Source of the DNA: Bacilli bacterium | GTDB lineage: Bacteria > Bacillota_I > Bacilli_A > RFN20 > CAG-826 | NCBI GenBank assembly: GCA_017534425.1 | Contig: JAFXWB010000007.1 | Coordinates: 17,550 to 81,549 of the forward strand | Direction: 5' to 3' | Length of the DNA stretch: 64,000 nucleotides | Part shown: positions 1,696 to 60,374 of the stretch, in pieces | Position numbering within the stretch: the first letter of the stretch is position 1 | Layout of the letters: every line of letters begins with the position of its first letter | The notes under the pieces: model-generated | Databases searched by the model: none | Told to the model about the DNA's origin: nothing | The model's input: only the letters and a program-made list of their open reading frames with translations | Program-made: the position numbers and the translations under genes

Positions 1696-1707
1696 TTTGT
1701 ATTAATC

Positions 1708-1885
1708 ATTAAAGAGGAATCCGAAAGGGTTCCTTTTTTGTTACTTTTATGACCTCTAAAAATATTAAAAAATTTTATTAATTAAAATATTTTAAAAATT
1801 AAGAAAAAACATAATTACTAATTTTAGACGGATATATATAGTGAAGGGGGATAAATTTATGAAATATAAATTATCTAGCAAAGAC
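1708..1885 (+). repeat. Copy A of a ~170-bp duplicated terminator/promoter/SD/start module (partner is 57822..57996, inverted)
   Basis: Direct comparison with the reverse complement of 57822-57996. Shared blocks are a 29-nt identical run (1751-1779), a 13-nt run, and a conserved SD+ATG block. Confidence 0.85.
1715..1740 (+). terminator. Intrinsic terminator of greA
   Basis: aggaatcc-gaaa-gggttcct forms an 8-bp stem with a GAAA loop, followed by TTTTTT. Confidence 0.8.
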
Positions 1886-2035
1886 ATGAAAACTATTATT
1901 ACCGGAGAGATTGCTTTAGCTACAGTTATGGCTATATGCGCGATCGCGCTCATGGCCGTAATAGTATATAAGTTATTTATGTCTAATGAGGGCACTTCTC
2001 AAGTTCCTGGCGGTTGGAAGTTTTCCTGGAAATAA
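1859..2035 (+). CDS. 58-aa single-pass membrane peptide with a C-terminal PGG-WKFSWK tail
   Basis: Strong SD GAAGGGGG lies 8 nt before the ATG at 1859, so the listed start at 1841 is probably too early. It has one hydrophobic helix. Its stop overlaps the radC ATG (TAATG). Confidence 0.55.
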   Translation: MKYKLSSKDMKTIITGEIALATVMAICAIALMAVIVYKLFMSNEGTSQVPGGWKFSWK

Positions 2036-54196: not shown

Positions 54197-54913
54197 TTAT
54201 ATTTGCTTTAACAAAGTTAGAGATTTAAATTCAATTTGAGAGACAAAATTTAGGAACTCGCAAAGCTCAAATATAATTGCTTTACATTCATCATTGCTAA
54301 AAGCAACTTTTGTAAAATTAGGAACATCTACTTTAAAGATGTAACGTAATATTTTTAATTTTCTCGGATCAGTTTTGACGTGTTTAGAGGCATCAAAACA
54401 ATTTTGACAAATAAATCCTCCATCTTTATAAGATAAGGCAGTTATTGCGTGTTTTTGACCACAAATAGCACACGAATCAACATCAAGGCCATAACCAGAT
54501 GCTTTCAAAACCTTCGCAAAATATATTAATAGAGCGGTAAGTGGAGAAAATTCTCCATTTAAACACTCTAATGTCTTTTCTAGAAACTCATATGTGTCTT
54601 TCGCATCTCCACTTCCGATAAGTGAATTCGTTATTTCTGAAATGAAGTCAAGAATAGCGAGTTTTTCAAAATCTTTTGTAATGTTGGGATAGGAACAAAT
54701 AACTTCTCCAACTCTTAACCAGTCGCCTTCTTCTCCATTAAATGTTTGGAATCTAGATTTTGTGAATAAGTTCACACTTGGAGCATTCTTTGAAGTAATT
54801 TTTAAAACACCTTTCGCTAAAAAGGATCTAATTCTATCTTTGGTTAAAACACTTATCATCGCCGAACCTTCTTTATAAGAAGTTGAGCGAATAACAATAC
54901 CTTCAAATTCCAT
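54197..54913 (-). CDS. recO: DNA repair protein RecO
   Basis: OB-fold N-terminus and zinc-binding C.IC....C..C. Downstream of era. Confidence 0.8.
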   Translation of the reverse strand: MEFEGIVIRSTSYKEGSAMISVLTKDRIRSFLAKGVLKITSKNAPSVNLFTKSRFQTFNGEEGDWLRVGEVICSYPNITKDFEKLAILDFISEITNSLIGSGDAKDTYEFLEKTLECLNGEFSPLTALLIYFAKVLKASGYGLDVDSCAICGQKHAITALSYKDGGFICQNCFDASKHVKTDPRKLKILRYIFKVDVPNFTKVAFSNDECKAIIFELCEFLNFVSQIEFKSLTLLKQI

Positions 54914-55785
54914 TATTTATAACCTAATTCTTTTAGAATTCTTGGATTATTAAGCCAGTCTTCTTTAACTGAAACGAATAATTCTAAGAAAATGCGTTTA
55001 TTGTAATATTCTTCTAAATCGGTACGAGCTTTCATGCCAATGGCCTTAATTCTTTTGCCGCCTTTGCCAATGACGATTCCTTTATGAGATTCCTTATCAA
55101 CTATTATAGTTGCACGAATATAAACAGCCTCTTTTTTGGATTTAATCTCATCAACACGAACTGCAAGGTCGTGTGGAACTTCATCTTTAAGCAATTTGAG
55201 AAGTTTCTCACGAATGACTTCGCTAATCATGAAAGAAGAATCTTTATCAGTGACTTGATCTTCAGCAAAGTATCTTGGACCTTCTGGAATAACTGATTTA
55301 ACTTCATTAAGAAGTTCTTCGATACCGAAGTTTTCAATTGCAGATGCTTCCAAGATTTTTGCTTTTGGATACATTTCTTGATATTTTGCTTTGATTTGTT
55401 GAACTTCAGGAAGCCTCATTAAATCAATTTTATTGATTACAATGAATAAAGGAATGTCTTTTGAAAGAGATTCATTAATAAAGCGATCGCCTTCATCAAA
55501 CCTTCTAGAAGCATCCACCACTAAAACATTTGCATCAACATCTTTAGCAGAATCTAAAGCTTCTTTATTCATAAATTCACCAAGTGAGTGATTTGCTTTA
55601 TGAATTCCTGGAGTATCTATAAAGATAATTTGATACTCTCCATCATCGTAAATTCCTTTGATAGAATTACGAGTAGTTTGGGCTTTTTCTGTGACAATTG
55701 AAAGTTTTCGCTCTAAGAGAGCGTTTATAATTGTAGACTTACCTGCATTTGGCCTACCAACAATTGAAACAAAGCCGCTTTTCAT
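54913..55785 (-). CDS. era: GTPase Era
   Basis: GRPNAGKST, DTPG, NKID and a C-terminal KH domain (VIGKGG..IK). Confidence 0.95.
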   Translation of the reverse strand: MKSGFVSIVGRPNAGKSTIINALLERKLSIVTEKAQTTRNSIKGIYDDGEYQIIFIDTPGIHKANHSLGEFMNKEALDSAKDVDANVLVVDASRRFDEGDRFINESLSKDIPLFIVINKIDLMRLPEVQQIKAKYQEMYPKAKILEASAIENFGIEELLNEVKSVIPEGPRYFAEDQVTDKDSSFMISEVIREKLLKLLKDEVPHDLAVRVDEIKSKKEAVYIRATIIVDKESHKGIVIGKGGKRIKAIGMKARTDLEEYYNKRIFLELFVSVKEDWLNNPRILKELGYK

Positions 55786-56186
55786 TATTTTAATGCGTCT
55801 TCCGAAAAGGCAAATGGGAGAAGTTCACTAATTGTAGTCTCTTGTACATCGCCTTTTAAATTTGACATATAGATAGGAGCATCTTTTGGGAAAAGTTCAC
55901 TAAGAACTTGTCTACATGCACCACAAGGTGAACATGGTTCGTCAGTGTCTGCCGTTAAAGCTAGAGCAACCATTTCTTCTTTCTGAACGCCATTCATTTT
56001 TGCCATATAAAGTGCGTTTCTTTCAGCACACATGCAAAGAGGATATGAAGAGTTTTCGACGTTTGAACCAACAAAAACTCGACCATCTTTACAAAGTAAA
56101 GCGGCGCCAACAGCAAAATGTGAATAAGGAGAATATGAAAGCTTTCTGGCTTCTTTTGCTCTTTCAATAAGTTCTTCTTTTGTCAT
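55785..56186 (-). CDS. cdd: Cytidine deaminase
   Basis: CAER and PCG.CRQ zinc-binding motifs. 133 aa. Confidence 0.92.
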   Translation of the reverse strand: MTKEELIERAKEARKLSYSPYSHFAVGAALLCKDGRVFVGSNVENSSYPLCMCAERNALYMAKMNGVQKEEMVALALTADTDEPCSPCGACRQVLSELFPKDAPIYMSNLKGDVQETTISELLPFAFSEDALK

Positions 56187-56632
56187 TATTTGAGACCTCC
56201 CAAAATCTTATCTTGTAATTCAAACATTATTTTTTCATCAGCTTCATTCATGTGGTCATATCCAAGCAAATGAAGCATGCCATGAACGAATAAGAACACC
56301 ATTTCTCTTTTAAGAGAATGTTCATATTCTTTAGCTTGTTCTTCAGCTTTTTCAAAAGAAATAATAATTTGCCCTAAGTTAACAGGACCACCTTTTAGTT
56401 CTCTTTCTGATTTTTCATCTAAGAAGGCAAAACTTATAACATCAGTTGGTCGATCAACGTTACGATATTCACGATTAATTTTATGAATAGTTTTGTTATT
56501 AACAATTGTAACGTCGGTAATATATTCGCCTTTTAATTTTAGTTCATCAAAGATTTTAACGTAATAGTCGTTAAACAATTCTTCGTAAGAATCGTATGTC
56601 TTTGGACCTTGGTTCAGAAAATCTATTACCAT
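56186..56632 (-). CDS. ybeY: Endoribonuclease YbeY
   Basis: HGMLHLLGYDH metal-binding motif. Confidence 0.93.
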   Translation of the reverse strand: MVIDFLNQGPKTYDSYEELFNDYYVKIFDELKLKGEYITDVTIVNNKTIHKINREYRNVDRPTDVISFAFLDEKSERELKGGPVNLGQIIISFEKAEEQAKEYEHSLKREMVFLFVHGMLHLLGYDHMNEADEKIMFELQDKILGGLK

Positions 56633-56675
56633 ATTCTTAAGGAAAAGTATTATATCATACTTTCACTTCAAATAT

Positions 56676-57848
56676 CTATAAATTACATGAATCGAAGAAT
56701 CTACGTTCGATTTTGGCATTTTCTTTCCTAAAGGAAAGGTTATTTAACAACTGATTGTAAGAAACAAACCCTGCATAATACATTACAAAGTGGAAAATAA
56801 CAAAGTTACATCCAATGTTTTGTGTCACAAACATCATCGCTACTGCAAAAGCAAAAGACAAAAAGATGTAAAAGATTTCTTTTATTCCTTCTTTAAACAT
56901 TAGTTTATCAGCCTTGAAGCTTGCCTCGATCGCCAAATCTTTTACTGAACTAGCATCTTTAAATGCTTGATTTTCAAGTTCGCCTATACGATTTTTAGTT
57001 TCTTCACCACTTTTTGAAAACATGATTAATTCTAGGAGTTTAAATAAAATTAAAGCTAATAGAACAAACACATTTCTAAAATCATTGAAGCAAAGCAAAA
57101 ATGTAACAGTAAACGCTAATAAAATCGATGCCAAAGTTTGACGATTGCAGGTGAAAAATTGTTTTTTAAATTCATTAAATTGAATGTACTTATCTTTAGT
57201 ACAATTTTTCTTTAATTCAAAGTATTTTGGAATATACTCCTTATCAAAAGTATAAACAAGTTTATAAAGAATACATTTTTCTGCTATTTGAGTGCACACA
57301 AACAGAACTAGAAATGCCAATGAAAATAAGAAGTTTTCACTCTTGTTGAGTAGATAAAAAGCCGCAATTAATAGACCTGCCGAAAATAGAGAAACTAATG
57401 AACTGAGTAAATTTAGTTTTGGAGAAATAACATGTTGTCTATATTTCTCAATTTTAATTACATTTTCAGGATTTTCTGCCTCCAGTACAACACATCTCCA
57501 TCTTCTTAAAAACTCATCTTTCTTCATTTTTACTACACCACGACCAGGGTCATAAATGATAAGACTCTTTTTCTTTCTTTTCTTCACCATAACAACGTGG
57601 TTATCGTCAATTAGAGTTAAAGATGGAGTTTTAATACAATCGAAATATTCTTTTGTGCAACCGCTTCCTTCTAAAGTTACTCCATAAGTTTTACTTATTT
57701 GCACTAAATCATCGAGACTATAATATTCGCGCTTAGTGGGCTTAGGAATAAAAAGATATGATTTGTCTTTAGCAAGTGTAGCCAAAAGCATTTTTAGTGA
57801 GGCAAAACCACAATCATGATCGTTGCCTTGATAGATAAAGTACTTCAT
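56676..57848 (-). CDS. C39 peptidase domain fused to a ~6-TM PCAT-like membrane domain, no ABC ATPase domain
   Basis: The start is taken at the ATG at 57848, 8 nt after SD GAAGGGGG. The catalytic set Q7/C13 (YQGNDHDCGFASLKMLL), His (DDNHVVMV) and Asp 16 residues later (IIYDPGRG) is present. Hydrophobic helices follow to the C-terminus at 390 aa. No Walker motifs. Confidence 0.75.
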   Translation of the reverse strand: MKYFIYQGNDHDCGFASLKMLLATLAKDKSYLFIPKPTKREYYSLDDLVQISKTYGVTLEGSGCTKEYFDCIKTPSLTLIDDNHVVMVKKRKKKSLIIYDPGRGVVKMKKDEFLRRWRCVVLEAENPENVIKIEKYRQHVISPKLNLLSSLVSLFSAGLLIAAFYLLNKSENFLFSLAFLVLFVCTQIAEKCILYKLVYTFDKEYIPKYFELKKNCTKDKYIQFNEFKKQFFTCNRQTLASILLAFTVTFLLCFNDFRNVFVLLALILFKLLELIMFSKSGEETKNRIGELENQAFKDASSVKDLAIEASFKADKLMFKEGIKEIFYIFLSFAFAVAMMFVTQNIGCNFVIFHFVMYYAGFVSYNQLLNNLSFRKENAKIERRFFDSCNL

Positions 57849-57996
57849 AAATACTTCCCCCTTCACTATATCTATCCACCCAAAAAATGACTTTCTGCTA
57901 TTTTGACCTTGTTTAAAATATTTTATAAATAAAATTTTTTAATATTTTTAGAGGTCGTAAAAAACAAAAAAGAACCATTTCAGATTCCTCTAGTTT
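57822..57996 (-). repeat. Copy B of the duplicated terminator/promoter/SD/start module (partner is 1708..1885)
   Basis: The reverse complement aligns with 1708-1885. The 29-nt identical run is at 57928-57956. Confidence 0.85.
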
Positions 57997-58102
57997 AATT
58001 GGTCAAATTATTTCATATTACATCTTGTTAATTTTTCTAGGACAATCTTAGAAATAAAGGTGTTTAATATTTCATTAAATATTGCTAAAATGATTAGTAA
58101 TT

Positions 58103-59662
58103 ATGGCTATAGAAAATAAAATAACAACATTTTTAAACAAAAGAACTTGGATTATTCCTTTGTTATTCGGACTTATGTGTCTATGTTTAGTCTCATCACT
58201 TCTCGGTGTTGAACTAAAAGGTGTAAGAAATATGGATCATTTCTTGACATTTAATACTGGCGCGGAACTGGCAGCAATATTTGCTGGGGTAATGGTAACG
58301 TTTTCGATATTGCCATCTTACAAAAGACAAAGTGGCTACACTCGAGTATTCGTTTCTTTAATCGCAGTACTTTGCTTTTTAATGGCATGCGATATCGGTG
58401 AAGCTCTAGTTGATAAGATTCCTGAATTAACTTGGTTAAATAAAACTTTTGCGACTCTTGTTTGGGCAAACGAAACAGCTGTTTGGTTCTTTTTCTTTGT
58501 TTATTGTACGCACGTATTAAAGAGCCAGGGAAAAGTAATTTCGATTTCTTATTTGATTGGTGTTATTACGCTTGTAATATTTGTTTTAATTCCTGTTGTT
58601 ACAGTCGGAAATCCACTTTATTTTAAAGTTATAGACGGAGTCTATTATCGTAAAGCAGCTGGTGATCACTACTTATGGTACATTTCTCGATTTCCATCAG
58701 TCATTTTTAGTGTTTTAACAATCATTGCTATTTTCCTTTCTAAAGAAAAAATTAGAACAAAAATTATTATTTCTATTTTTATGGGACTTCCACTCGTTGC
58801 AATGGGTTCAGGTGGATATAAAACAGGCGTTGCCGTTCAATATGTCGCAATGATGATGTCTGTTGTATTAATGTTTGCGTTCTTATTTTCTGATAATGAA
58901 AAAGATTTGTTCTCTACAAATAAAGAACTTGGTCTTGCAACCAATATTCAAAAACATATGCTTCCATCAATCTTCCCTGCTTTTCCTGACAGGAAAGAAT
59001 TTGATATTTTTGCATCAATGTCACCTGCTAAGGAAGTTGGCGGAGACTTTTATGATTTCTTCTTAATAGATGATTATCATCTAGGTCTTGTCATGGCTGA
59101 CGTTTCTGATAAAGGTATCCCTGCTGCTTTATTTATGATGGCATGCAAAATCATGGTTCAAAACTATGCAATGATGGGGAAATCACCTTCTGAAGTTTTA
59201 ACTTCAGTTAATAATCAAATTTGTCAAAACAATCAAGATGAAATGTTTGTAACAATTTGGCTTGGAATTTTAGATTTAAAAACCGGTATATTAACTGCTG
59301 CCAATGCTGGTCATGAAAAACCTGCCATCCAAAATGATGAAGGCAAATTTGAATTATTTAAGGACACTCACGGATTTGTTGTGGGTTGGTATAAAGGCGT
59401 TAAATATGTTGATTATCAAGTTCAACTTAAAAAAGGAAGTAAAATCTTCCTTTATACTGACGGAGTTCCTGAGGCCACTTCTGCTAATGGACAATTTACA
59501 CGTGAAAGAATGGTAAAAACACTTAACAAGTACCGTGATATGCAACCACAAGAAATTATCCAAAATATGAAAGATGATATTGATTTGTTTGTTGGTCAAG
59601 CTGATCAATTTGATGATATAACTATGTTATGTGCAGAATTTAAAGGTTACGATAATGAATAA
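58103..59662 (+). CDS. Multi-pass membrane sensor fused to a SpoIIE/RsbU-type PP2C serine phosphatase
   Basis: The N-terminal ~265 aa carry ~7 hydrophobic helices. The C-terminal domain has GGDFYDF, MADVSDKG, LYTDG and QFDDITML motifs. Confidence 0.85.
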   Translation: MAIENKITTFLNKRTWIIPLLFGLMCLCLVSSLLGVELKGVRNMDHFLTFNTGAELAAIFAGVMVTFSILPSYKRQSGYTRVFVSLIAVLCFLMACDIGEALVDKIPELTWLNKTFATLVWANETAVWFFFFVYCTHVLKSQGKVISISYLIGVITLVIFVLIPVVTVGNPLYFKVIDGVYYRKAAGDHYLWYISRFPSVIFSVLTIIAIFLSKEKIRTKIIISIFMGLPLVAMGSGGYKTGVAVQYVAMMMSVVLMFAFLFSDNEKDLFSTNKELGLATNIQKHMLPSIFPAFPDRKEFDIFASMSPAKEVGGDFYDFFLIDDYHLGLVMADVSDKGIPAALFMMACKIMVQNYAMMGKSPSEVLTSVNNQICQNNQDEMFVTIWLGILDLKTGILTAANAGHEKPAIQNDEGKFELFKDTHGFVVGWYKGVKYVDYQVQLKKGSKIFLYTDGVPEATSANGQFTRERMVKTLNKYRDMQPQEIIQNMKDDIDLFVGQADQFDDITMLCAEFKGYDNE

Positions 59663-60062
59663 TTACCAGGTACCAGCAAACGTCGAATTAATCAATAAGA
59701 TGATAGATCCTATCATTTCTTCTCTAGAAGAAATTGAAGTTGAACATAAAAAGATTTATCAAGTAACTCTAGCATTAGAAGAGATCTTTGCTAACATTTC
59801 TAAATATGCTTACCCTTCTGGTGAAGGGATAATCGATATATTTTACGAAATCAAAAAAGACGAAAAACAACTAAAAGTTGTTATTAAAGATAAAGGCACC
59901 GCTTTTAATCCGTTAGAGAAAGAGGATCCTGATTTAGCCGCTTCAGTTTCAGAAAGAAAAATAGGTGGATTAGGTATTTATATTGTTAAAAATATTATCG
60001 ATGATATAAAATATCAACGAATCAATAATGAAAATATATTAGAACTCATTAAACAATTATAA
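59655..60062 (+). CDS. RsbW/SpoIIAB-type anti-sigma serine kinase (HATPase_c)
   Basis: N-box EEIFANISKYAY, DKGTAFNP and GGLGIYIV. ~135 aa. The ATG at 59655 overlaps the phosphatase stop. Confidence 0.8.
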   Translation: MNNYQVPANVELINKMIDPIISSLEEIEVEHKKIYQVTLALEEIFANISKYAYPSGEGIIDIFYEIKKDEKQLKVVIKDKGTAFNPLEKEDPDLAASVSERKIGGLGIYIVKNIIDDIKYQRINNENILELIKQL

Positions 60063-60077
60063 TTGGAGGGCAAAATA

Positions 60078-60374
60078 ATGACTATTAAAGAAAAAAGAGA
60101 TGGAAATAAACTTGTTGTTAGTGTTGAAGGAAGAATTGACACTAATACATCACCAGAACTTAGCGAATATTTCCAACAACATCTTAAAGATGTTAAAGAA
60201 CTTGAACTTGATTTAGAAAATGTAAATTATGTTTCATCAGCAGGTTTAAGAACCATTCTTTTTGCCCAAAAAACGATGGATAAACAAGGCAAGATGGTTG
60301 TTTCACATGTTTGCAAAGAAATCATGGAAACATTTGAATTAACTTGCTTCACTGACATTTTAACAATTATCTAA
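60078..60374 (+). CDS. STAS-domain anti-sigma-factor antagonist (RsbV/SpoIIAA-like)
   Basis: 98 aa with the phosphorylatable-serine motif NYVSSAGL. The ATG at 60078 follows a GGAGGG SD. Confidence 0.82.
   Translation: MTIKEKRDGNKLVVSVEGRIDTNTSPELSEYFQQHLKDVKELELDLENVNYVSSAGLRTILFAQKTMDKQGKMVVSHVCKEIMETFELTCFTDILTII

Follow-up and report, generated by a model that had tools for sequence, protein, structure and literature searches.

An uncultured Bacilli bacterium encodes a conserved 390-aa membrane protein that is built like a peptidase-containing ABC transporter (PCAT) but has no ATPase domain. It shares its upstream module with a distant gene for a 58-aa membrane protein whose N-terminus resembles the leaders removed by such enzymes, and the pair may constitute a housekeeping peptide-maturation system in uncultured gut bacteria. 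The gene was analyzed within a window of 64 kb (the whole stretch of DNA under study, 64,000 nucleotides), whose relevant features are collected in the table below. The observation made in a prior sequence-only reading, namely a PCAT-like protein with an intact C39 catalytic set and no ABC ATPase domain, located upstream of ybeY, is confirmed.

Features of the C39 peptidase gene, the small ORF and their surroundings, in positions of the window
Positions	Strand	Feature
56676..57848	-	Gene for the 390-aa C39 peptidase plus six-helix membrane-domain protein (PCAT-like, without an NBD), stop codon included
57471..57848	-	C39 peptidase domain (residues 1-126); catalytic codons Gln7 57828-57830, Cys13 57810-57812, His84 57597-57599, Asp100 57549-57551
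56733..57422	-	Membrane domain: six long predicted helices (residues 143-372) with the predicted fold of a type-IV ABC exporter
56679..56732	-	Short C-terminal tail (residues 373-390, ...RRFFDSCNL) in the position where PCATs carry the ATPase domain
57849..58010	-	Upstream module, copy B: decayed terminator-like hairpin (about 57968-57993), identical 30-mer, ribosome-binding site GAAGGGGGA
1700..1858	+	Upstream module, copy A: greA terminator (1711-1738), shared 30-mer, ribosome-binding site
1859..2035	+	Small ORF (58 aa), candidate substrate: 16-residue double-glycine-type leader ending Thr-Gly, one transmembrane helix, invariant tail PGGWKF(S/T)WK; its stop overlaps the radC start
56633..56675	-	Spacer between the C39 gene and ybeY, with an extended -10 element TGATATAAT (56649-57) 16 nt before the ybeY ATG and no terminator
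54197..56632	-	Downstream genes ybeY (56186-56632), cdd (55785-56186), era (54913-55785) and recO (54197-54913), identified with Pfam; context and possible read-through target
58103-59662	+	Divergent upstream gene (SpoIIE phosphatase)

The reading frame begins at an ATG; a GTG six codons upstream overlaps the ribosome-binding site, and the homologues start at MKY. The N-terminal domain is a genuine C39 peptidase domain, scoring 63.2 bits against the Pfam Peptidase_C39 model (PF03412, cut-off 22) over residues 3-126. The Gln-6-Cys and His-16-Asp spacings equal those of LahT (Gln21/Cys27 and His101/Asp117), and the Cys, His, and Asp residues align with those of PCAT1 and LahT. The family profile hits LahT at 1.8e-14. 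In the AlphaFold model (pLDDT 86.5, pTM 0.73), the domain is followed by six long helices (residues 143-169, 173-210, 218-255, 259-295, 299-342, and 347-372). The best Foldseek match of the model is full-length PCAT1 (E 2.8e-14, TMq 0.62, about 460 aligned columns), followed by the peptidase domains of HlyB, LahT, and ComA and by type-IV exporter membrane domains (e.g., TmrAB, IrtAB, and MsbA); the peptidase domains of LahT, ComA, and PCAT1 are matched with TMt of 0.70-0.76. The family profile aligns to PCAT1 residues 23-394 at E 3e-11, over the peptidase and helices 1-5, although Pfam ABC_membrane itself is not detected. The protein ends 15 residues after helix 6, no ABC_tran hit or Walker motif is found in it, and no LSGGQ signature occurs in any frame of the window.

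The architecture is that of a large family maintained by selection. A search returned 124 close relatives, almost all of 390 aa, and 277 representative clusters at E<=1e-30, nearly all of 380-415 aa. Gln7, Cys13, His84, and Asp100 are kept in 260-263 of 264 relatives, and the polar membrane-domain residues Asp202, Lys228, Asn255, and Glu292 in 98%. The dN/dS ratio is 0.09-0.17 overall and 0.06-0.22 in the separate peptidase and membrane halves. In all 45 genome loci examined, the gene lies directly upstream of ybeY, in the order [C39-TMD]-ybeY-cdd-era-recO-glyS, and none of these loci contains an adjacent ATPase gene. The co-transcription with ybeY, cdd, era, and recO proposed in the sequence-only reading is overstated: ybeY starts 43 nt downstream with no terminator-like site on the minus strand in between, but 39 of 42 loci contain an extended -10 promoter 9-19 nt before ybeY, inside the spacer. 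Co-transcription therefore means at most optional read-through, which weakens a tight operon with ybeY as a functional clue. Literature searches for PCATs without an NBD, or for a link between C39 and ybeY, yielded no description.

The small ORF at 1859, named in the sequence-only reading as the only candidate double-glycine peptide, is a real and conserved gene (156 clusters with E<=10 in a single-sequence search and 831 with the profile; the top 120 profile hits were all close relatives). It lies between greA and radC in every locus with flanking sequence. Its first 16 residues fit the published recognition pattern of Leu-12, Glu-8, and Leu-7 with a hydrophobic residue at -4 (PMC6363468), as follows: Leu at -12 in 129/134 sequences, Asp/Glu at -8 in 116/134, Met/Ala/Cys/Leu at -7 in 125/135 (Met in the small ORF itself, but Ala or Lys in one clade), Ile at -4 in 132/136, and Gly at -1 in 136 of 136. 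Positions -12, -11, -8, -7, -4, -2, and -1 are conserved, while -10, -6, and -5 vary. Position -2, however, is Thr in 135 of 136 sequences and Pro in one, whereas known leaders end in GG, GA, or GS, and the S2 site of LahT is narrow. The leader and the membrane segment are predicted as one helix (residues 7-43). It is the only leader-like small ORF in the window apart from one antisense artefact. A substrate gene adjacent to the peptidase was also sought, but an HMM of the small ORF found nothing within 8 kb of the gene in 45 loci. A second Gly-Gly near the C-terminus (PGG|WKFSWK) is considered a less likely cleavage site, as the region is predicted as coil, is rich in Gly and Pro, and has no hydrophobic -7, whereas C39 domains read a helix; it would also probably lie outside the cell.

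The two genes, about 56 kb apart, have about 160 nt of upstream sequence that is 85% identical. Within-genome local-alignment scores of the two upstream regions are 144, 67, 84, 53, and 101, each the maximum of its row, whereas most between-genome scores are about 20-30; the regions are thus more alike within each genome than orthologous regions are between genomes. In six pairs, the best BLAST hit of the small-ORF upstream region, searched against the whole C39 locus, falls upstream of the C39 gene (E-values of 2e-18 for the present window, where it is the best hit anywhere in the window, 2e-6, 4e-16, 0.08, 3e-24, and 1e-14); the pattern holds in five or six genomes, and both genes were seen together in only five genomes plus two inferred pairs. 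A 16/16 core is shared with a clade whose peptidase protein is only 34% identical. Only one of nine cross-pairings of metagenome small-ORF loci with genome C39 loci, made to examine module sharing in distant clades, gave a significant, correctly placed hit, the others being uninformative because the pairs are not from the same genome. No third copy of the module, which would indicate a regulon, was found in the window, an exact-pattern scan of JGI metagenomes with the module of another species found nothing, and no Rfam family matched in the window.

The interpretation offered in the sequence-only reading, a remnant or a new architecture that might process or sense peptides without ATP-driven export or might borrow an ATPase encoded elsewhere, is partly supported: the remnant is rejected, the new architecture is supported, and the small ORF is strengthened as the candidate substrate. 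The preferred explanation, held with no more than even confidence, is that the protein is a PCAT derivative that has lost its ATPase domain and retains a cytoplasmic C39 cysteine peptidase, presumably active, tethered to a six-helix membrane domain. The analysis itself establishes the predicted fold and its homology to PCATs, the intact catalytic set, the purifying selection on both halves, the fixed length of about 390 aa, and the fixed position upstream of ybeY; the substrate, its cleavage, the energetics, and the independence from ATP are inferred. In this view, the membrane domain, probably as a dimer, would hold the hydrophobic part of the 58-aa protein at its lateral opening (dimerization and the position of the peptidase being assumed from PCAT1), while the C39 domain would bind the leader, which lies directly against the transmembrane helix, and cut after Thr15-Gly16, releasing a 42-residue membrane peptide that begins with Glu. 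Because the cargo is itself a membrane helix, no ATP-driven export step would be needed, and any translocation would be passive or driven by the membrane potential, as in SbmA-type relatives of ABC membrane domains. Being held under the same promoter and ribosome-binding module, the two proteins would be made together. The position of the candidate gene, 56 kb away rather than adjacent, and the Thr at -2 count against this explanation.

Of the alternatives, none of which appears likely, a membrane-anchored C39 peptidase with a different substrate survives best. The shared module would then reflect only co-regulation or gene conversion between two housekeeping promoters, and the substrate could be another protein with an N-terminal extension. 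The non-canonical Thr at -2 and the fact that ybeY is the only fixed neighbor are compatible with this reading, and mycoplasmas carry C39 transporters without any recognizable GG peptide (PMC6609329). For the orphan C39 transporter of JCVI-syn3A, even a lipoyl transfer has been proposed, and the present protein gives a weak NCBIfam match to the mycoplasma Mbov_0121 family. Moreover, the block copied in the window includes a useless, decaying terminator, which shows copy-and-paste rather than selection on every base. On the other hand, the leader is conserved at the positions that a C39 domain reads and variable elsewhere, no other leader-like small ORF lies in the window apart from the artefact, the module is shared only by these two genes in 64 kb, and the sharing recurs with different sequences in several genomes.

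A split exporter, in which the protein works with an ATPase subunit encoded elsewhere in the genome, is somewhat less likely. The predicted exporter fold and the homology to PCAT1 would suit it, and the membrane domain keeps cytoplasmic helical extensions of about 20 residues per helix, with the near-invariant charged residues Asp202, Lys228, and Glu292, that could contact a partner. The absence of an ATPase extends only to the 45 loci and the window, so a separately encoded one cannot be excluded. However, the loop between helices 4 and 5, which carries the main NBD-coupling helix in type-IV exporters, is a three-residue turn in the model. The membrane part is about 230 residues, whereas the same helices span more in PCAT1 (family positions 12-342 map onto PCAT1 residues 23-394), and type-IV exporters are almost always fused to their NBD.

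It is more doubtful that the small protein is a stable partner or pseudo-substrate, whose leader docks in the C39 groove while Thr-2 blocks cleavage, so that the pair forms a membrane complex with some other role. The identical promoter, ribosome-binding site, and first three codons (Met-Lys-Tyr) suggest matched expression, and sharing even the ribosome-binding site would suit stoichiometric partners as well as an enzyme and its substrate. Thr-2 is nearly invariant, and the core peptide is more conserved (53-100%) than the peptidase protein (24-98%). The essentially invariant catalytic residues are nevertheless hard to explain if nothing is cut. A decaying pseudogene fragment, suggested only by the absence of an NBD, is refuted by the uniform length, the dN/dS ratios, the invariant residues, and the position of ybeY within 30-50 nt in the 32 loci tabulated, which leaves no room for an ATPase remnant.

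PCATs are textbook examples of ATP-driven coupling between leader cleavage and export, and a large conserved family that keeps the peptidase and the membrane domain but drops the motor raises the question of what the membrane domain does by itself, for which it provides a natural test system. The family sits in the core genome, next to ybeY and era, in a widespread lineage of uncultured gut Bacilli with small genomes; with what appears to be one conserved substrate, it looks like cell physiology rather than bacteriocin warfare. A further, tentative possibility is that a PCAT that has shed its ATPase has become an ATP-independent housekeeping leader peptidase, and possibly a membrane insertase or releaser, dedicated to one small membrane protein with a Thr-Gly variant of the double-glycine leader, the two being encoded 56 kb apart under a module homogenized between the sites. 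If so, the same logic may explain the orphan C39 transporters of mycoplasmas and of the minimal cell JCVI-syn3A, for which no double-glycine peptide is known; the family offers a concrete, testable substrate type, a Thr-Gly leader on a small membrane protein, that bears on this old puzzle. The concerted evolution of two short promoter regions 56 kb apart is unusual in its own right and could serve as a general way to find functionally linked genes that are not neighbors.

Among known systems, the PCAT/AMS bacteriocin exporters (PCAT1 of Clostridium thermocellum, ComA, and LahT) share the N-terminal C39 peptidase with its catalytic set at the same spacing, the six-helix type-IV exporter membrane domain, and the leader pattern of the candidate substrate. 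The present protein differs from them in the lack of the ATPase domain, in shorter cytoplasmic loops, and in its location in a core housekeeping neighborhood (rpsU...ybeY-era-recO) rather than in a bacteriocin or quorum-sensing cluster, with no immunity or accessory genes; its candidate substrate is remote, ends in Thr-Gly rather than Gly-Gly, is highly conserved, and is itself a membrane helix. SbmA/BacA-type peptide transporters (the SLiPT family) show that a membrane domain related to ABC transporters can work without an ATPase, using the proton gradient (PMC13316013). The LmrA membrane domain reportedly does so without its NBD. These systems have no peptidase domain and import rather than process; they serve here as a functional precedent only, SbmA being absent from the top 50 Foldseek hits. 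The orphan C39-domain ABC transporters of mycoplasmas (NCBIfam NF045998, Mbov_0121 family; JCVI-syn3A gene 0401) likewise combine a C39 peptidase and a membrane domain, in a reduced-genome relative of the Bacilli and with no adjacent GG peptide, but they are about 670 aa long and retain the ATPase, and the match over residues 7-277 (32.7 bits) is far below the family cut-off of 500. Stand-alone C39 peptidases such as FapD also use the C39 fold outside a full ABC transporter, but FapD has no exporter-type membrane domain and is matched with only 20 bits against a cut-off of 330.

The ORF on the minus strand encodes 390 aa from the ATG that follows a strong ribosome-binding site (GAAGGGGGA). Pfam places a Peptidase_C39 domain at residues 3-126 (63.2 bits against a cut-off of 22), and the spacing of its catalytic residues (Gln-6-Cys and His-16-Asp) matches that of the crystallised double-glycine protease LahT (Gln21, Cys27, His101, and Asp117). 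Cys, His, and Asp align with PCAT1 and LahT. The protein stops at residue 390; no ABC ATPase family is detected in it, and no LSGGQ signature exists in any frame of the 64-kb window. The ybeY gene begins 43 nt downstream, with no terminator-like site on that strand in between, while the upstream gene, encoding a SpoIIE-type phosphatase, is divergent. Every element described in the sequence-only reading (an intact C39 catalytic set, no ATPase domain, and the adjacent ybeY) is thus present. Its interpretation was supported only in part: the view of the protein as a new architecture is borne out, that of a remnant is not, and the proposed co-transcription with ybeY is a weaker clue than was assumed.

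Coordinates of the features in the window and in the compared loci
Feature	Location	Strand
Peptidase gene (390 aa)	56676-57848	minus
Gln7 codon	57828-57830	minus
Cys13 codon	57810-57812	minus
His84 codon	57597-57599	minus
Asp100 codon	57549-57551	minus
Region upstream of the peptidase gene	57849-58010	minus
In-frame GTG upstream of the peptidase gene	57861-57866	
Spacer between the peptidase gene and ybeY	56633-56675	minus
Extended -10 element in the spacer	56649-56657	minus
Region upstream of the small ORF	1700-1858	plus
In-frame GTG upstream of the small ORF	1841-1846	
Small ORF (58 aa), start	1859	
Small ORF together with radC	1859-2703	
Divergent partner-switching block	58103-60374	plus
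Corresponding upstream region with the SpoIIE gene in locus L055	L055, 1-1289	
IS3-like element between greA and the promoter module	L065, 671-1785 (also L063 and L064)	
Fused ybeY-cdd ORF	L034, 9237-10106	
yqfC/yqfD-like genes upstream of the peptidase gene	L044, 6823-7960	

An AlphaFold model built on 27 relatives is confident (pLDDT 86.5, pTM 0.73) and shows a C39 fold followed by six long helices (143-169, 173-210, 218-255, 259-295, 299-342, and 347-372) and a short C-terminal helix. In a structural comparison against the PDB, the best matches are to full-length PCAT1 (E 2.8e-14, TM-score of 0.62 on the query, about 460 aligned columns), followed by HlyB, the isolated LahT and ComA peptidase domains, and the membrane domains of TmrAB, IrtAB, TM287/288, and MsbA. 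A sequence profile of the family aligns to PCAT1 residues 23-394, i.e., the peptidase plus helices 1-5, at E 3e-11. The protein is therefore a true homologue of PCATs, with the peptidase and the type-IV exporter membrane domain but no nucleotide-binding domain (NBD).

A search of 5.8 billion proteins gave 124 relatives ranging from 98% down to 31% identity, almost all exactly 390 aa long, and an exhaustive profile search of 1.84 billion cluster representatives gave 277 clusters at E<=1e-30, nearly all of 380-415 aa and matching end to end. In 264 of these, Gln7, Cys13, His84, and Asp100 are kept in 260, 262, 263, and 261 sequences, respectively, and four polar residues of the membrane domain (Asp202, Lys228, Asn255, and Glu292) are kept in 98%. 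The dN/dS ratio between orthologues is 0.09-0.17 overall and is similarly low in the peptidase half (0.06-0.21) and in the membrane half (0.10-0.22), although these values are rough, as dS is saturated. Literature searches found no paper describing this architecture. All relatives come from uncultured organisms; the only names attached to them are "hypothetical protein" and "cysteine peptidase family C39 domain-containing protein", from gut Bacilli MAGs labelled Coprobacillus, Erysipelotrichaceae, or Candidatus Fiminaster.

In all 45 genome loci recovered, the gene lies immediately upstream of ybeY-cdd-era-recO-glyS on the same strand, even where the protein has diverged to 24-35% identity while Era and YbeY remain 45-80% identical. 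The upstream neighbour varies. It is usually rpsU, whereas in the MAG locus L034 the peptidase gene follows dnaK-dnaJ, and ybeY and cdd are fused there into a single 289-aa ORF. In a Coprobacillus MAG (L044), the genes directly upstream resemble, as judged by eye, the sporulation genes yqfC and yqfD, which would place the gene where B. subtilis has phoH-pgpH; the family may have replaced those genes next to ybeY. In the window, a divergent three-gene partner-switching block, comprising a membrane-anchored SpoIIE/PP2C phosphatase, an HATPase_c_2 anti-sigma-type kinase, and a STAS protein, lies between rpsU and the peptidase gene; such a block is also upstream in locus L055, where the SpoIIE gene was noted. 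In most of the 45 loci rpsU lies 80-260 nt upstream, leaving no room for the block. No Rfam family reaches its gathering score and no tRNA gene is found in the 64 kb, despite several aminoacyl-tRNA synthetase and ribosomal-protein operons, so no T-box or ribosomal-protein leader is detected.

The 30-50-nt spacer before ybeY is not neutral. Among the equivalent spacers of loci L001-L055, 39 of 42 contain TGnTAnnnT, an extended -10 element, only 9-19 nt before the ybeY start (TGATATAAT in the window), usually followed by a conserved CCCAAG and no Shine-Dalgarno sequence, which suggests a near-leaderless ybeY-cdd-era-recO transcript. As far as can be judged from consensus matches, on which all promoter assignments here rest, ybeY therefore has its own conserved promoter. 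The peptidase gene has no terminator and can read through, but co-transcription with ybeY is not a safe basis for inferring function.

The small ORF at 1859, mentioned in the sequence-only reading as a side remark, turned out to be the most informative lead. The 160 nt upstream of this ORF and upstream of the peptidase gene are 85% identical, and the shared stretch includes a terminator-like hairpin, an identical 30-mer, the ribosome-binding site, and the first three codons, Met-Lys-Tyr. Nothing else in the 64 kb resembles this module. As a by-product of the sharing, both genes have an in-frame GTG six codons upstream of the ATG (MKGEVF-/MKGDKF-); it lies inside the ribosome-binding site, and some database entries (396 aa and 64 aa) use it as the start, probably wrongly. 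The small ORF is a real gene: the single-sequence search returned 156 clusters with E<=10, at least 120 of them 66-100% identical, the profile search returned 831, and further relatives go down to 53% identity in JGI metagenomes. In every locus with flanking sequence, it sits between the greA terminator and radC, and its stop overlaps the radC start (window and loci L046, L049, L051, L053, and L056-L095). In metagenome contigs from the same species as the window (L063, L064, and L065; small ORF 100% identical), an IS3-like element with two transposase ORFs of 100 and 259 aa is inserted between greA and the promoter module. Five genomes carry both genes on one contig, 55-58 kb apart, and two further pairs were inferred.

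The N-terminus of the small protein is leader-like. In 136 sequences anchored on the invariant Gly16, the positions tabulated below are conserved, while positions -10, -6, and -5 vary freely.

Residue conservation around the putative cut site of the small protein
Position	Residue(s)	Count
-12	Leu	129/134
-11	Ser/Thr	130/134
-8	Asp/Glu	116/134
-7	Met/Ala/Cys/Leu	125/135
-4	Ile	132/136
-2	Thr	135/136
-1	Gly	136/136
+1	Glu	135/136

This is the recognition pattern established for ComA and LahT, i.e., Leu-12-X3-Glu-8-Leu-7 with a hydrophobic -4, read as a short helix in a hydrophobic groove (PMC6363468), with the one exception of position -2, which is Thr instead of Gly. More distant relatives read MRKLTREELAEIKTG and MKRVLSEKECKNIVTG, each followed by Glu, and look even more like textbook leaders. 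The rest of the protein is a single membrane helix directly after the putative cut site, followed by an invariant tail, EG..(V/I)PGGWKF(S/T)WK; AlphaFold predicts one continuous helix over residues 7-43. As JAB peptidases elsewhere trim residues after a C-terminal Gly-Gly, RadC, a JAB/MPN-domain protein, could be a second processing enzyme for this protein, although this is pure speculation. A regular-expression scan of the whole window for such leaders on ORFs of up to 120 aa found only this ORF and one antisense artefact inside aspS.

The two upstream regions evolve in concert. In five genomes, the within-genome local-alignment scores between the region upstream of the small ORF and that upstream of the peptidase gene are 144, 67, 84, 53, and 101, each the highest in its row, whereas comparisons between genomes, including orthologous regions, mostly score 17-37. 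In one genome, 52 of the 53 nt before the start codon are identical. When each small-ORF upstream region was searched against the entire peptidase locus (4-64 kb), the best hit landed upstream of the peptidase gene in six of six pairs (E-values of 2e-18, 2e-6, 4e-16, 0.08, 3e-24, and 1e-14). A 16-nt core (CCGTAATAAGTATAGT) just before the ribosome-binding site is shared between the small-ORF loci L087/L091 and the peptidase locus L007, whose protein is only 34% identical to that of the window (E 4e-4), and a close variant occurs in both copies of another genome. In the window, the copy upstream of the peptidase gene carries a terminator hairpin that has nothing to terminate and is decaying; at least there, the block was copied wholesale from the small-ORF site. 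Whether the cause is repeated gene conversion or selection on a fast-evolving control site, the two genes are kept under the same transcription and translation start signals.

What the analysis establishes is an active-looking C39 peptidase on the cytoplasmic side of an exporter-type membrane domain with no ATPase, and a small membrane protein with a C39-type leader that is co-regulated with it, as judged from the shared upstream signals. The mechanism, including the cleavage itself, is inferred from sequences and single-chain models alone. Most likely, the membrane domain dimerises like its relatives and holds the membrane helix of the substrate at the lateral opening, while the peptidase binds the leader helix and cuts after Thr15-Gly16, leaving a 42-residue membrane peptide that starts with Glu. 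Because the cargo would partition into the membrane, the ATP-driven outward flip of PCATs would be dispensable. In the model, the loop between helices 4 and 5, which in type-IV exporters carries the main NBD-coupling helix, is only a three-residue turn, which fits the loss of an NBD interface. If transport does occur, SbmA shows that a related membrane domain can run on the proton gradient. The architecture and its being functional are very likely; that the small protein is the substrate cut at Thr-Gly is about as likely as not, and ATP independence is somewhat more likely than not.

Several other readings remain possible. A separately encoded ATPase is not excluded by the loci surveyed, although none of them shows one. 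The peptidase might act on a different substrate, the two promoters being merely co-regulated. The small protein might also be a non-cleaved partner or pseudo-substrate, a reading that the invariant Thr-2 and the matched expression signals make worth testing, although the invariant catalytic set argues that something is cut. The second Gly-Gly, near the C-terminus of the small protein, is a less likely C39 site, as that region is predicted as coil and is probably extracellular. A pseudogene is refuted.

The protein is thus a homologue of PCATs that has the features of a C39 peptidase in sequence, catalytic residues, and predicted fold, but it lacks the defining NBD and a substrate encoded in the same cluster, so it should not be filed as an ABC transporter. 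The parts are familiar; new are the loss of the motor across a large family, the core-genome setting, a single conserved membrane-protein substrate candidate with a Thr-Gly leader, and promoter homogenisation between distant loci. The nearest described relatives with a similar puzzle are the orphan C39 transporters of mycoplasmas, including gene 0401 of the minimal cell, for which no double-glycine peptide is known. The present protein has a weak match to that NCBIfam family, but those proteins keep the ATPase.
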